Positions 42,906-51,943 of a stretch of DNA of 64,000 nucleotides are shown piece after piece. Under the pieces are notes generated by a model. It had not been told where the DNA came from and did no database searches. It saw nothing but the letters and a program-made list of their open reading frames with translations. Both the position numbers and the translations under genes were made by a program. Numbering within the stretch: position 1 is the first letter of the stretch; the number at the start of each line of letters is the position of its first letter. The DNA is taken from the NCBI GenBank assembly GCA_030264375.1, contig JASCQW010000099.1, positions 42,284,639-42,348,638 of the forward strand, given 5' to 3'. The DNA comes from Carcharhinus longimanus. Lineage: Eukaryota.

Positions 42906-43614
42906 CCAAGAAAGAACCAAATGTAGGCTTCCTCAAAATAGCAGTGGGTGAAGAAAAGAATGCAATGAGTAAGAGCTAATTTATTCAGAATTTTGCTGCC
43001 TTTATAAACTCAGGTATAAGTTCAGAAATTAAGAACTAAAATTAATCTACCTATTACCAGTAAAGGCACTTTTTAGTGAAGGTGACCTGTATGCATGTAC
43101 TTAGAGTAAATGCATACATACAAGGTGTGTTTTTAAAACTTAAGAACTGGATTATAATGTTTCTAATACTTTGCCCCTAAAACATCACTTCATTTCCAAA
43201 TTATTTAGCTTTAAAAGCATGCTAAATACATAAATCTACCATTTAGATGGTTTGCAGGAATCCTTTACTCAGTTATTCATCCAAAAATAAGACAAATACT
43301 TGAATTGATTATATTTGCAATACCAAAGCCATTATTGCAACCCAAAAGTTTACAAAATGCCTTCAAAAGATAGCTCCAATTGAGGAGGTTATTATTTGAT
43401 AGATATTATAAATATATTTAACAAAACAACACAAGATATGGTTTTGTTTTTGAACATTCAAAGGGGACCTTAACTGAAACATCCCATCAAAGATAAAAGT
43501 AGTAAGAGCGCTGAGGCGAAGCAAAGCAGATTTTTGTCCGAACTTAAGAGCTTAAAAGAACAAAATCACAATTGCACAGAAACTTTATTACAGCAATTCC
43601 TTTATGGCACTCAC

Positions 43615-43706
43615 CCTGCTGTTTTCATTTGGCACCACAACAGCAAAGCATCTTTTGCAGATTTCTTTTCCTTGTTGTCTTCTGACTCAACGCTGATATC
43701 TTGGAT
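43615..43706 (-). CDS. SPTBN1: SPTBN1 exon 5 ([31 protein letters not shown])
   Basis: cag|ATC...GG|gtgagt; 92 nt. Confidence 0.95.
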
Positions 43707-43918
43707 CTGGATAATAAAAATGAATATCAAATTGGTTAATTTAGTTGCAAAATTTGAGCTACTGAAGAGAAGCAGGTTTAAGTGGTCCTAAACACATCAG
43801 GTGCTTGCACAAAAAGGAACGCTCATATTTTGTTTAAGTGGCCAAAGTGTAGAATAATTAAAACAAACATTAATTAATCCTAAAGATCCTAGCAGCATCA
43901 TTGCATTGATGAATTTAC

Positions 43919-44092
43919 CTGGAATCGAAGAATGATGGTCCAAATTAAACCAAGAGTGAGTCGGTGGTTTCCATCCACAATATCATGGGATCCCATATTT
44001 TCTAAATGTACTCTTTGCTCTTTAAGGAATTGAAGGGCTTTGTCAACATTTTCAAGACAATGGATTCGCATTCGTCCTTTTGTTGGTTTTGG
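43919..44092 (-). CDS. SPTBN1: SPTBN1 exon 4 ([58 protein letters not shown])
   Basis: Manual translation; tag|CCA...CAG|gtaaat; 174 nt, phase 0-0. Confidence 0.95.
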
Positions 44093-44394
44093 CTAGTTGA
44101 GAAAGAGGGGGAATATGCACATAAATACCAAATATCATGCAAAAGAACTGTAGCACTGGAGTACTGAATAAATGCTGGTCCAGAATTTTCAGTTGTAATG
44201 ACAGCAAAATTGTCAGCATTCACTGTCCTCACAGCTCTGAAACTGATAGCAAATTCCATGTTTCTTCAGAAAATGTGCTGTTGAAGATCCCTCCCAAATA
44301 CAACCAATCAAAAATCACTTAGGACGAAAATTAAAAATTTATCACCATCCCATCTCTAAACCCACTTTCCCCTCTAGAACCCTTGAACACATTA

Positions 44395-45391
44395 GGGGTG
44401 ATTTTACCATTGCGATCCACCCATTTTCAGGCATGACATGGTGGTAAAGTCGAGCTAAAACACTTAGCACGACTGTGCTGGTATTCACGACCGGCGCCAC
44501 TGTAAGAGTGCCACATTTGTGGCAAGGTCAGCCTCGCATTGGAAATGGGCGGGAGGTAGGTTAATATATGGAAATGTATTATAATGTTGTTTTACATTTG
44601 CTTAACAAGGCCAGCACTCAATCGCCCAGGCCTGCCCCCTGGGAAAAATTCATGCCGGCAAGGAATAGACATGCTCCCCACAAACAGGGAGCAGTCAACT
44701 TGGACTCGCCAGTGGAACCGGAGACCATTGAGACCCCACAGGGATGCTGAAGGCAAGGGGGGTGCCCCTTAGACAGTGCCAGGNNNNNNNNNNNNNNNNN
44801 NNNNNNNNNNNNNNNNNNNNNNNNNNNNNNNNNNNNNNNNNNNNNNNNNNNNNNNNNNNNNNNNNNNNNNNNNNNNNNNNNNNNNNNNNNNNNNNNNNNN
44901 NNNNNNNNNNNNNNNNNNNNNNNNNNNNNNNNNNNNNNNNNNNNNNNNNNNNNNNNNNNNNNNNNNNNNNNNNNNNNNNNNNNNNNNNNNNNNNNNNNNN
45001 NNNNNNNNNNNNNNNNNNNNNNNNNNNNNNNNNNNNNNNNNNNNNNNNNNNNNNNNNNNNNNNNNNNNNNNNNNNNNNNNNNNNNNNNNNNNNNNNNNNN
45101 NNNNNNNNNNNNNNNNNNNNNNNNNNNNNNNNNNNNNNNNNNNNNNNNNNNNNNNNNNNNTCCTGCTAATACATGTGTGCAGCATCAGTGGCCTGCACAT
45201 GCACACTATTCCCTCTGCAGGGTTTCAGGTGTGTTAAGCCCCGCCCATGACTTCAGCAACAGGCTTGCTGATATTTTTGCAGGCAGACAGCGTATGGGGA
45301 GAGCCTGAAAACACACCCAAAAGACAGATCTGAAACTCTTCCAGTTTTAGGTCCGCCCAGCAATTAGAAAAAAAATGGTAAACTCACTCCC
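44395..45391. mobile_element. TIR-bounded MITE-like element (gap inside)
   Basis: GGGGTGATTTTACCATT ... AATGGTAAACTCACTCCC imperfect TIRs; ATT flanks both sides. Confidence 0.65.
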
Positions 45392-45532
45392 ATTGTATCA
45401 TCTTTGACTCCAAGATGAACTTTTGACGTCATATTAGTGCCAGAGTGTGGAGCACCTATTTCCAGCTTTTAAATGTTGCTCAACATCATCCTCATCATCT
45501 CATCTGCTGCTGAAACTCATTCATACTTTCAT

Positions 45533-45677
45533 TAAGTGGCCAAAAGTGTAAAGATCCTAGTGGCACTCATTGCATTGCTGAAATTACCTGGAATCGGAGA
45601 ATGATGATCCAAATTAAACCAAGGGTCAGTCGATGGTTTCTCTCCACAATAGCTGAGTAGCCAGATATCTTTTCCAG
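45533..45677 (-). pseudogene. Partial duplicate of SPTBN1 exon 4 (3' half), its donor and downstream intron flank (pseudo-exon or alternative exon)
   Basis: 45588..45677 translates [30 protein letters not shown] followed by gtaatt. 45533-45587 aligns with the intron flank at ~43835-43918 apart from a ~25-nt deletion. Confidence 0.85.
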
Positions 45678-45699
45678 CTACCACCACCACCAGCCACAC

Positions 45700-46262
45700 C
45701 CTGTACCCCCGCTCCACCCCCAATCATCTAATTCTAGCCTCTCCAGCATCCCCGAATAGAGAGCCATGTAGGAGATCAGGTGGGAACACTTCGAACTAGT
45801 CAAGTCTAGAGATAATAAAAGTACGAATGAGTGGTTCAGCAGCAGATGAGCTGGTAAGGGGGTGAAGTCTAGCAACATCCAACAGCTGAAAATAGTCCAT
45901 CTCCCAGTTAAGGGTCATCTTGATTTGAAAATTCTCAGTTGTTTTTAAACCCCTTCTCCATAACCTGACCCCTCACGACCTTGTAATTCTCTCAAACTCC
46001 CCACCCTGAGACACCTGTACTCATCTAATTCTAGCCTCGAGCATCCCCAAATGGATAGCCATGCCAGGCCAAGCTCTGGAATTACGCGCCTACACCCCTC
46101 AGCCATTCTACCTGGAATTCACCCTTTAGTACAGTCCTAAAACCTACCTCTTTGACCAAGCTTTTTGTTATTTGACCTACGATTTTCCTGAATGGTTTGA
46201 TGTCATACTTTGTTTCATGATGCCTGTGAATCATCTTGGGATGTTTCATTACATAATAAAGC
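45700..46262. mobile_element. L2-like fragments in both orientations
   Basis: tcatctaattctagcctc occurs twice (near 45724 and 46021); aaaacctacctctttgaccaagcttt is an L2-like 3' motif. Confidence 0.5.
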
Positions 46263-46264
46263 AC

Positions 46265-46882
46265 AGGACATCCTGGGTTTTAATCAATAGGGCATTGAGG
46301 ACAAAAGAAAGAGAGTTAAATTAAACCTGTATAAAAAAAAGGTAAGCCTTAACTGGAGTACTGACGCAAGTTCTCAGCACCACACTTTAGGAAAGGCATT
46401 TGAGTACAGAAAGGATTCACAAGAATGGCTTCAGGGATGAGGAACTTCACACAACTGGAAAAGTTGGGAGTATTTTCCTTGGAGAGGAGGAAGTTGGGAG
46501 GATATTTGATAGAGGCATTCAAAATCGTGAAAGGTCTGGACAGAGTAGATAGGTGAAAAACTGGTCCTACTGATGGAAGGATTGAGAATCAAAGGGCACA
46601 GGTTTGAGGTAATTAACAAAAGGAGGAAAGGTGGCATGAGGAAAAACCTTTCAATGCAGCAAATAGTTAGGATCTGGAATGCACAGCCAGATAGTACGAT
46701 GAAGGTAGGTTCAATCAAGGCTTTCAAGATGGAATTGAATCATTATCTGAAAAGAGAATATTTGTAGGGCCTTGGGGGAAAGGCAAGGGAGTGGCATGAA
46801 GTGGATTGCTCCCTCAGAAGGCCAGCACAGACACGATGGGTTGAATGATCTCTATGGCATAAACATTCTCAGATTCTATGAC
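46265..46882 (+). mobile_element. CR1 LINE 3' fragment, degenerate
   Basis: aactggagtactg..., gatatttgatagaggcattcaaaatc (DLIEAFKI), 3' tail agattctatga. Confidence 0.8.
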
Positions 46883-47899
46883 TAAAGGTGTTAGGTTGTT
46901 GATGTTGCCTCATGCTCTTCGTCTCACTTTTTCAACCTTTGAAAAAAGTCACACCTTGTTGAATGAGGAAATAACTGTTTATAATGGCATAACAAGGTTT
47001 ATAATTATTACTCAATAGTCTCACAGGACCTGAAAGGTTAATTTTATAATTATTGATTTTTTTTGCATTAGGAGTTCCACATATTTAAAACAACAAAAAA
47101 AAAATTAGGGTAAGGCGGTGTGTGAAATTTATTCATGATCCTCATGGCTGCCCTGCATCAATTTAACGGCCCACCACCTCCTCTGCCCCCTGCAGGTGGG
47201 GAGCATCAGACAGGTTTGGAGCATATACCCCCTGCCTTCAAATCCTTTGGCTAAAAAGTACAGAATCCAGCTCAATATTTTTTTTGAACTTTATTTGAGC
47301 TCCACAAATATTTATGTTCCAATTATTTACTGCATTGCCTGCAAATTTTTTAAATTGAGGATGAAGGTGTTTTTATACTTCCTGGTTTGCTGTCTAAGGG
47401 AACACTTCAATGTGACTGGCTGCTTACTCTGTTAACAGCACCACTTGCGTTGCATGCCTGGAGATCCCTTGACTTGGTACCAGACTTGAAGTATTGTTTG
47501 TCAGGGGAAGTCCAAACCTAGACCTAAATCCAAGCTCGTTAGATCTTTGTGGGCAACCTTCTACGAGCCAATAGCAAATGCACTGCTTGTTGCTAGTCCC
47601 TAGTCCCAAAATCAAGCCCTTCTTTCACAATATTATTGTAGAATAATTACCAGGCTTATATTAACATGTCAAATTGCTTAACAAATTTCTTCTCACGGTT
47701 ATGACACTTAGAAATTTTTTGGGAAAGTTGCAACAACTAAAGACCAAACTTAAACGTGTAGAAGGCAAAAACCATTAACAACAAAGTTATGGTAACAGGT
47801 TGGGATTAGAGTGGCTCAGCACTTTTTTCTTTTACCCAATAGTTTAAATCATATGTATCTGCCAGTCATTTTTGTTACATTAATCAACGATAACTATTT

Positions 47900-48500
47900 G
47901 CATTTAGTTAGCACCTTCATTTCCATTAAATATTCCAAACTGCTTCATAGGAAGATCAAATAAAATTTGACACTGAACCACATAAAAACTTGTGTTAGGA
48001 CAGGCAAAGAGGTAGTTTTTGAGAAATACCATGGAAGCAATAGTAGTAGAGGCAGAGGAAATTGCAGAACTGAGAGCATATCTAGATGCAAGCACAGCTG
48101 TAAACTGTGGAAAGAATAAAACTGGGGGTGTGCAAAAGGCCAAAACTGGAGCACAAAGATGGCGGAGAATTGTAGGATGCAGAAGGTTACAGAGATACAG
48201 AGATGGGTAGAAAGGTGACCATGGAGAGTTTTGGAAACAAAAGCAATTTTAAAATCAAGCTTTGGCTAAACTGGGAGTCAATGCCAGTCAATAAGCGAAG
48301 GGTGGTGTGTAAATGGGACAAGGTACGAGTCCTGTGCCAAGTTTTAGATAGTTAAAGTTCATGGAGAGTGCATATAACCAGTCATTTGATTAGTTGGGTC
48401 TGGATATAACAAAGGTATGGATGAAGGTTTTAGTAAGATATAAGTTGAGGCAGTGCAAAAATGGGGTAATGTTATGGAGTTGAACGTAGATAGCCTTGGC
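47900..48500 (-). mobile_element. L2-like LINE fragment
   Basis: Reverse complement of an L2-like 3' region (gttaggacaggcaaagaggtagtttttgag...). Confidence 0.5.
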
Positions 48501-50029
48501 ACTTGAGTTCCTGACACATGGGTTTTATACATCCAGGAATATTTTCTTTGGATTCACCCAACTAAATATTTGGGGTGACCAAATTCAGTGTCTTCAGTAT
48601 ACACCAGAAACTTCATTCTAAACCATCAACTCCATCTCTCTTCATGGCTAAACAAGGCTATTCGCCATCTTAAGTTTTCCTGCTTGACCCACAGCTGGAT
48701 ATTGTAACAGAACAGCAATTGATTAAATGCTCATTTTCCTTCTTTTTCAAAGCAGAACTTAAATTCAAATCAGCAGAACTCAAATCATCTCAGTTAATAG
48801 CAATAGTTATGGTCAATAGTTGTTCAAACATCACACTAGAGATTATATGCATAAACTATACTGATTCTCCAACACAGTAGCCGAAGGAGTTATGTATTCT
48901 GGCATCCTTTGGTGAGATAGTCTGCTTCTTCCAGATGTTCAAGTGGTTGTTAAAAACCCTACAACACTGTAGAAAAACAAAATTCCACAGATTTTTTTAT
49001 TGCATGTATTGCATATCATGTACCACATGATATGATCATTTGATAGGAGATACTTGTGGTCATACAAGAAATAAGCCCAGGAGCTTTAATTGGTTACTTT
49101 GCACTCTTAATAATTTAGCTCAGTGAAAATTACTAATGTTACAGTTTACCATGTGGCTGAGAGCAAATAATAGTAATAATTCACACTGGGGAAATGAAAC
49201 ACAAGAATGCTTTTCTCAAGACCACAGTAATCTGACCCTTAAGAAGCTAGTGTCTATTTAAATGTCCTATTTGTGGGAACATCATTATGGAAACCATAGC
49301 TTTCTCGTTACCCTGGTGATTAATGATCAGTCGAATCTCAACTTACAATAAGTGTGCTATTGCAACAGACATTCTTGAGTATATTCAAATAAAGGAGTGT
49401 TTTAATTGTATTGCCTTCAGGATGTCAAAACAGCTTCGTCATGACTCAAGAGATTCTCACGTCCACTTTAACGGTTGAGCAACATCAAAGATGATAATTT
49501 GTTCATTAAGAGCCTAATCTTTTTGTCCATGCTTTGTTTTATAACGGTTGAAATATCTGTAGTATTTGGCATCAGAAAATGAAATCCTAAAGGCTTAATT
49601 TTATGATCCTGAAAGGGGACTAAACAGCAGAGGTGTCTAGAAAATAGTTGCTGAGTGTTATTAGTAGAAGTCCCACCAGCATTTTAGCTGGATGTCATTT
49701 TACAGGTCATGGAAAAGAGTATGAAGCAAGTGTGCCTACCTGTCCCTATCAGAAAAGCCAAGGTCAGACCTTTCACTGAGGTTTCCTGGCTTTCTGTCCT
49801 GCTCACATCTTAAAAGAGGTCATGTTGCAGGTCAGTAAAGAAGTAGAGATAGGGATTACTCCACACAAGGACCAAGTTTTGGATTGAGATTGATTTTGAT
49901 GAGCCCTCTGCTAATTTCTGTATGTAGCAGCCTCATTATCCAAAGGCTACTAAGTGTGGATTGCTTCACAATAATTACTGCAGCTGGTATGGTGATTAAA
50001 TATTGTCATTATTCTGAAACACACTCTAG

Positions 50030-51256
50030 CCACCTAAAATGCCAGACCTTTTTGATTATTGTCTGATGGCTCTGATATCCTTCATTATGAAATGCTTTAG
50101 AAAGTTAGTCATGGCACAAATCAGTTCCTGCCTCCTCCTGCACCCAGATAACAAAGACACCTACGTCAGGCTCCTATTCATAGACTACAGCTCAGCCTTT
50201 AACACCATTATTCCTAAAAGAGTCATCACCAAACTTTGTGGCCTGGGACTCGGTTCCTTCCTCTCCATTGGATCCTAGACTTCCTAACCCACAAGAACAG
50301 GCAACAACAACACCTCCATGATCATCTTCAACGCCGGTGTTCCGCAAGGTTGTGTTTTCAGTCCCTCGCTATACTCCTTATACACCTCCAACTGTATGGC
50401 CAAATTCCAACTCGATTTTCAAGTTTGCTGATGACACCACCGTTGTGGGTTGGATCTCAAACAATGATGAGACACGGTATAAGAGAGAGACAGAGTCTGG
50501 TGAACTGATGCAATGACAATAATCTCTCCCTCAACGTCAACAAAACGAAGGAGATAGCCATCAACTTCAGGAAGCATGGTGGAGGGCACGCCCTGTCTAC
50601 ATCAATGGGGAAGTAGTAGAAATGGTCAAGAACTTCAAGTTTTTAGGTGTCCAGATCACCAACAACCCGTCCTAGTCCGTCCATGCAGACACTATAATTA
50701 AGAAAGCCCAACACCTCTACTTTCTCAGGAGTCTAAGGAAATTTGGCATGTCCACTACAACTCTCACCAACTTCTACAGAATGCACCGTAGAAAGCATTC
50801 TTTCTGTTTGAATCACAGCTTGGTATGGCTCCTGCTCTGAGCAAGACGGCAAGAAACGACAAAAGGTTGTGAATGTAGCCCAATCCACTCAAATCAGCCT
50901 CCCATCCAGTGACACTGCCTGACTTCCCGCTGCCTTGGAAAAGCAGCCAGCATAATCAAGGAGCCCATGCACCCGGACATACTCTTCCATCTTCTTCTGT
51001 CAGAAAAAAGATACAAAGGTCTGAGGTCATGTACTAACTGACTCAAAAACAGTTTCTTCCCTGCTGCCATCAGACATTTGAATGGGCCTACCTCACATTA
51101 AATTGATCTTTCTCTACACCCAAACTATGACTGTAGCACTACAGTCTGTATTCTCACCTTTCCTTCTCTATATACGGTATTCTTTGTCTGCATAGCACGC
51201 ACAAAATAATACTTTTCACTGGATACTAATACATGTGACAATAATAAATCAAATCA
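50030..51256 (+). mobile_element. Rex1/Babar-type LINE, 5'-truncated and frameshifted
   Basis: [18 protein letters not shown] (ORF 50039..50278), aagtttgctgatgacacc (KFADDT), tail aataaatcaaatca. Confidence 0.85.
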
Positions 51257-51484
51257 TCTTTTGGGCAAAAAGAAAAACTGCTGCTCAGAAATTAAAGACA
51301 TACTTCAGTTTTTAAAAGGTTAGAACTGAAGCTGCAATTTATGTATGCTTTGTTTGATTTAATATCAAAAACTGCTACTTGAACAAAGCCTTTCATAGAC
51401 ACATGTTTGTGTAAGGAAAAATAACAGCACTTTGATCCAAGGAATATTACTGACCATGCATATTTCTGTCAATTAAATACTTAC

Positions 51485-51636
51485 AAGTCTTTCTCCTGAC
51501 AACACCTCGAGTAGCTTGATCAGCATCCGGCCATCGCGTAGGTCTGTGTACAAATCTGTGATTCTGCAAGACACTCGTGCCAAGTGCGAGTTTACCCATT
51601 TTGTGAAAGTCTTCTTTTGAACAGCTTCACGCTCGT
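51485..51636 (-). CDS. SPTBN1: SPTBN1 exon 3 (CH1 N-half: [51 protein letters not shown])
   Basis: Manual translation; cag|AC...CTT|gtaagt; 152 nt. Not in the ORF track. Confidence 0.95.
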
Positions 51637-51943
51637 CTGTAAGATACAAACATTGGTTTACTCACTGATCAGCATATCAAGGGAGCATTTGATCTTAACT
51701 TTTAGCTTTAAGTACTTCCAGGTTCTCTGTGACATCTCACTGCCCTCTGCTGAAGTGGAAGGCTTTGAGACAATCTGCCTCTGGGCTGCAGCCCTCAGTA
51801 ATCTTTGCCGTGGGGTAACTAAGTGAATTGATCTGACCCACTACATCCCCACTTGCTCCAAGTAGATCAATTAATGGCTCATTACTGTAAAAATCTAAAA
51901 ACTTTAAACAGTTTCCCTACAGTGATTTAATCAATAATTCGTA

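Follow-up and report, generated by a model that had tools for sequence, protein, structure and literature searches.

Background

Tandem exon duplication raises a simple question wherever part of an exon recurs in a neighbouring intron: is the second copy an alternative exon or only a remnant of sequence? The question is posed here by the third intron of a beta-spectrin gene of Carcharhinus longimanus, within a window (the whole stretch of DNA analysed) of 64,000 nucleotides that holds 11 N runs. A preliminary description of this DNA had drawn attention to a 90-nt open frame on the minus strand, regarded as an in-frame duplicate of the 3' half of exon 4, which could be either an alternative exon remodelling the actin-binding CH1 domain or a decaying pseudo-exon.

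The alternative exon pair of ACTN4 is located in the actin-binding region. Mutually exclusive homologous exons originate by tandem exon duplication, the members of the ACTN4 pair being 89% identical (PMC3228551, PMC5740500, in the parts of the texts used), and exons 19a and 19b of ACTN1 are described as another such pair in the excerpt of PMC1769375. CH1 binds actin in the structure of beta-III-spectrin, as given in the excerpt of PMC5676748. No alternative CH1 exon of a beta-spectrin was found in the titles and abstracts returned by the literature searches, and the term 'SPTB' does not occur in the body of PMC5740500; the MXE tables in the supplement of that paper may bear on the question.

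Results and discussion

The gene and its real exons

The gene is a conventional beta-spectrin, the segment 44092-43919 being best matched by the solved beta-spectrin chains 6anu (120 bits) and 8iah (116 bits); the names SPTBN1 and exon 4 were adopted from the preliminary description. The exons concerned are:

51485 to 51636, minus strand: exon 3, first half of CH1 (CH model positions 2-47), ending in phase 0
43919 to 44092, minus strand: real exon 4, 174 nt and 58 amino acids, second half of CH1 (PF00307 positions 58-108/109)
43615 to 43706, minus strand: exon 5, contiguous with real exon 4 in an RNA contig of run X19

The 174-nt exon is kept in four beta-spectrin paralogues of the genome (L009-L012, on contigs C99, C166, C112 and C180 of G000) with 95-100% protein identity. 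An 855-aa open frame at one paralogue was rejected, as it is an N run.

Extent of the exon copy

The open frame was read as described, with TAG, 90 nt at 45677-45588 of the minus strand and GTAATT in succession, and its phases (0-0) and translation were also as given before. The features of the putative exon and its downstream flank are:

45678 to 45680, minus strand: proposed acceptor TAG, in a very weak context; AC in organism D
45651 to 45677, minus strand: codons 1-9 of the putative exon, without homology to exon 4 (10/27 nt)
45588 to 45650, minus strand: copy of the last 21 codons of exon 4, template 43919-43981, 56/63 nt identical
45549 to 45587, minus strand: copied donor CAG/GTAATT and proximal intron 4, 39 nt, template 43881-43918
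45532 to 45548, minus strand: copy of distal intron 4, 17 nt, template 43834-43849, lying past a skip of 31 nt that has TA at each end

A BLAST search within the window aligned 45549-45651 with 43881-43982 at 91 of 103 nt (E 3e-32), and a search of the genome placed the exon-end sequence at two loci only, the copy and real exon 4; the match is far beyond chance. Homology to exon 4 begins at 45651/45650, so that 63 coding nucleotides of the supposed duplicate are indeed homologous, while its codons 1-9 agree with exon 4 at the chance level tabulated above and the 80 nt upstream give an alignment to exon 4 that does not surpass those of 883 of 1,000 shuffles. The likeness of peptides (LEKISG/LENMGS) which had suggested a longer duplicate lies one codon out of register and finds no counterpart in the DNA. 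Since the copy starts 63 nt before the exon end, the donor falls inside the copied piece, which includes neither the acceptor nor the other 111 nt of exon 4.

About 55 nt of intron 4 were copied after the donor. Exon-exon joints devoid of intron, which would mark a retrocopy, are thus not seen, in agreement with the earlier view that copying took place at the DNA level. The 31 nt missing from the copy (43850-43880) start with a repeat of TAGGAT. Instead of having been skipped during copying, these 31 nt may have been inserted into the real intron afterwards.

Anatomy of the surrounding patch

The copy does not stand by itself; it belongs to a patch set into a dispersed repeat, which replaces the earlier picture of a tandem exon duplication by one of several templates. 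The elements of the patch and of its host are:

45390 to 45534, plus strand: host dispersed repeat, left part, with dispersed genomic copies
45902 to 46264, plus strand: right-hand part of the host repeat, which follows the left part collinearly in copies L005, L006, L007 and L008
45766 to 45895, no strand assigned: inverted copy of the host repeat, 45813-45895 mirroring 45456-45534
45724 to 45768, no strand assigned: direct copy of the host repeat, source 46021-46063, 39 of 43 aligned nt
45652 to 45723, no strand assigned: filler of 72 nt, G-rich on the minus strand, p about 0.3 against the host-repeat copies

Four other copies of the repeat in this genome match both parts, 45390-45534 and 45902-46264, in that order, and from these paralogous copies within one genome the pre-insertion allele may be reconstructed. 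The two parts are spaced by about 150 nt in L008 and L006 and by 367 nt here; about 150 nt of the host repeat is lost, with a 367-nt patch in its place. The inverted segment 45766-45812 preserves about 48 nt of repeat gone from the original place. The dispersed copies are 60-80% identical; the repeat gave no Pfam family in either of two frames and one weak other copy in a protein search, and it may be L2 LINE-like.

The exon 4/intron 4 boundary occupies two consecutive pieces of the patch, with templates 1.67 kb away. At 45532-45534 the repeat and the intron template have TTA in common (11 of 14 letters matching when the joint is extended), TA is shared at the 31-nt skip and ATG at 45766-45768, and 6 nt of filler lie at the joint 45896-45901. 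Microhomology of 2-3 nt is thus present at three of the six joints, two others having no known template, and is a weak sign after 12% divergence. No significant template for the filler 45652-45723 was found in 43000-48000 or in the repeat copies. A gappy match of L008 to the filler (0 of 200 shuffles) was not trusted, as it lies outside the repeat segment.

The anatomy of the patch is that of a complex templated insertion. The exon piece within it very probably represents a 63-nt partial exon copy, laid down with the rest of a locally duplicated patch by template switching in the germline, which is now a neutral, unspliced pseudo-exon. In such an event, a broken 3' end would have primed on several nearby templates, perhaps in one episode, and repair of the MMBIR-like or of the polymerase-theta-like kind would fit. 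The same neutral outcome might also have come about in separate events that happen to adjoin, namely an inversion, a minor direct duplication and a short duplication or ectopic conversion of the exon boundary; this is the less probable history though one deserving attention. Between piece and template the divergence varies from 0/16 to 13/79, and two joints are without a resolved template, as separate events could produce. Against this, all pieces abut within a single gap of the host repeat, sequence deleted at that site survives in the inverted piece, and with such small counts the divergences are compatible with a single age.

Complex germline MMB-TI numbers 33 and 26 events in two people, with up to five templates, in the excerpted report PMC8421209. 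The present patch resembles these events, as far as that excerpt describes them, in drawing on several short nearby templates in reverse and forward orientation (the inverted, direct and exon/intron pieces make at least two nearby templates, in both orientations) and in its fixation in the germline with no gross rearrangement, short microhomology or microhomeology also being described there. It differs in being old, fixed across four species labels and 12% diverged, and in having the boundary of a coding exon, 1.67 kb distant, among its templates.

Splice signals and the predicted stem

A small acceptor model was trained on 21 real acceptors chosen by eye within this gene, whose leave-one-out scores run from -1.8 to 9.0. 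At -11.8 bits, the proposed acceptor falls below all 21 and ranks 431 among the 442 AGs of intron 3; its context is G-rich, and the pyrimidine tract is missing, as already pointed out earlier. The remaining in-frame AGs (45668 and 45641) take ranks 401 and 188. Of 939 random positions of intron 3, 527 (56%) would supply an in-frame AG with the frame open, and its occurrence here is therefore not beyond chance. The copied donor equals the real one and is unchanged in organisms B, C and D. The strongest AGs near it are 45805 (rank 4 of 442) and 45795 (rank 30 of 442), and the exons that they would open (218 and 208 nt, respectively) both contain stops.

As a consequence of the inverted duplication, a stem is predicted around the copy. 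The arms 45456-45534 and 45813-45895 agree at 66 of 79 aligned nucleotides; the predicted pre-mRNA fold has -185.6 kcal/mol (z=-8.26) with about 71 of 83 arm pairs, and the proposed acceptor is paired in it. The stability of the arm stem is -97.6 on the transcribed strand against -84.4 on the other. Seven of nine transition mismatches are G-U on the transcribed strand, which is not significant (one-sided p about 0.09).

Weak acceptors and flanking inverted repeats can silence pseudo-exons. The copy is like such pseudo-exons in having one good and one poor splice site inside a predicted long stem, and unlike them in that its donor and coding-like sequence come from the next exon of the gene itself. 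The spliceosome would ignore the copy as only the donor was copied and the AG would have arisen by chance, with no pyrimidine tract, while the inverted arms may pair so as to enclose the copy and loop it out. It is likely, judging from the predicted fold, that the copied donor is tolerated because the event that brought it also made the stem that would hide it.

A cryptic exon used at a low level, in which the donor is occasionally joined to a weak AG as splicing noise or as a poison exon, is improbable. The material for it exists: candidate AGs at 45677, 45668 and 45641 are in frame and those at 45652, 45795 and 45805 out of frame, the last two being the stronger, and the donor is the intact one common to B, C and D. 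However, the predicted hairpin arm contains or adjoins 45795 and 45805, and run X19 yielded no contig of this kind.

Transcript evidence

No run on record as RNA matched the stretch, and six runs were guessed to be RNA. In one of them, X19 (organism G), the single record is a contig of 6,649 nt (depth 33) showing the canonical exon 4-exon 5 junction; it carries the real exon's letters at the seven differences, and its loose ends coincide exactly with the beginning of exon 5 and with the 5' part of real exon 4. X19 gave no contig peculiar to the copy, which is weak evidence, as assembled contigs drop rare isoforms and G may lack the patch. Across 43600-51700, four RNA-like runs are dominated by repeats, with real exons 3-5 nearly uncovered. 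The intron 3 segment 50100-51256 is a dispersed repeat with thousands-fold contig depth in all four, which shows its family to be abundant and transcribed; 46300-46900 is another repeat fragment, presumably CR1-like, with moderate cover in the RNA-like runs.

Divergence of the copy and its state in other species

Taken together, the four copied pieces outside the coding sequence show 21 differences from their templates in 174 nt (12%). In the neutral-copy model, the real exon is free to change only at synonymous sites (15.7 of 63), and a divergence of 12% together with this constraint leads to an expectation of 1.9 synonymous and 2.9 non-synonymous differences; 4 and 3 were seen in the final 21 codons. 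The counts given in the preliminary description are thus right, but the excess of synonymous differences that it had drawn from them stays within the neutral-copy model (P=0.29 for at least 4 of 7). A point that counts against neutrality is that 4 synonymous differences at 15.7 sites exceed the neutral 1.9 (P=0.12 for at least four). The three changed residues (D, G or an S-context G, and T) are D, G and T in all four genomic beta-spectrin paralogues; therefore, the changes arose in the copy.

Sixteen DNA-like runs were listed, of which three, one each of organisms B, C and D, were compared over 45490-45800. The whole 311-nt stretch is present in one gap-free contig in each, with 9, 5 and 6 letters differing, and each organism carries a separate contig for real exon 4; hence the patch is older than the splits of these organisms, and the event would precede the split of the four sampled species labels. 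Twelve of the 20 differences are listed (piece ends left out); all are private and fall within 45521-45769. The orthologous copies sought by the preliminary description do exist, with no indel, frameshift or stop in the 90 nt in any of the three DNA contigs, whereas their rate of change does not set them apart: three of the twelve listed changes fall in the 90 nt against 4.3 expected if uniform (P=0.32). These are R to Q in B, and F to Y, at an invariant residue, with one silent change in D. The contig of organism B has depth 2 and may hold errors, and with one contig per organism alleles may be polymorphic; leaving B aside, two of five changes fall within the 90-nt frame, one synonymous and one not. 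The real-exon pieces of B, C and D differ from the copy at 9, 10 and 9 letters and the exon of the window itself at 9, consistent with a real exon 4 nearly unchanged across B, C and D.

Organism D has TAC in place of the acceptor TAG. As D is the most distant by word share, the AG may have been gained after its split. An exon being born, with an AG gained after the D split and low-level inclusion in some tissue, is a quite improbable reading. If true, the protein would gain 30 residues, forming a second C-terminal helix of CH1, or the copy would act as a poison exon, and the inverted arms of the same event would form a built-in structural switch; should inclusion be shown, the birth of an exon could be traced in the part of beta-spectrin that is most conserved.

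A functional alternative or mutually exclusive exon remodelling CH1 is more improbable still. It would account for the open phase 0-0 frame with an intact donor, for the absence of indels and stops in B, C and D and for the 4 synonymous against 3 non-synonymous differences. However, with 90 nt in place of 174, the middle of CH1 would lose 28 residues and have 9 others scrambled, and inclusion in addition to exon 4 would insert 30 residues mid-domain. The 30-aa peptide has no Pfam CH match, whereas exon 4 has one; changes fall at residues invariant in all four paralogues; and neither the acceptor nor the first 111 nt of exon 4 was copied, the AG coming from unrelated filler, being among the weakest of the intron and absent in D.

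The comparison with known mutually exclusive exons leads to the same result. The copy is like them in being a homologous neighbour in the adjacent intron with the same phase and a GT donor, and unlike them in that it has half the length, an acceptor that was not copied, a 5' third that is not homologous, another structural part and an AG that is not conserved. Set against five features of such exons, as presented in the parts of PMC3228551 and PMC5740500 used, it departs in three: the length is dissimilar (90 against 174 nt), the splice sites are not a conserved usable pair, the donor being intact and the acceptor uncopied, and homology extends over 21 of 58 codons rather than over the exon and the same structural part. 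It agrees in frame and phases (0-0), which chance provides at 527 of 939 positions. As to the fifth feature, junction reads to both flanking exons, the RNA-like runs gave the canonical contig of X19, from another organism, and no junction of the copy.

An assembly artefact beside the 377-N gap (44784-45160) that separates the copy from the real exon is refuted by the gap-free contigs of the 311-nt stretch in three of three independent DNA runs under other species labels, the 12% divergence of the copy and the separate contig for real exon 4 pointing the same way, and its likelihood is negligible.

Conclusion

The decaying pseudo-exon, rightly listed among the options of the preliminary description, is the reading that best accounts for the locus. 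The patch is very probably a tidy fossil of multi-template repair, which placed a live splice donor in the intron of an essential gene, and is in itself of little importance. It offers a caution for genome scans, since a partial copy of an exon inherits the frame, the donor and a synonymous excess with no selection on the copy.
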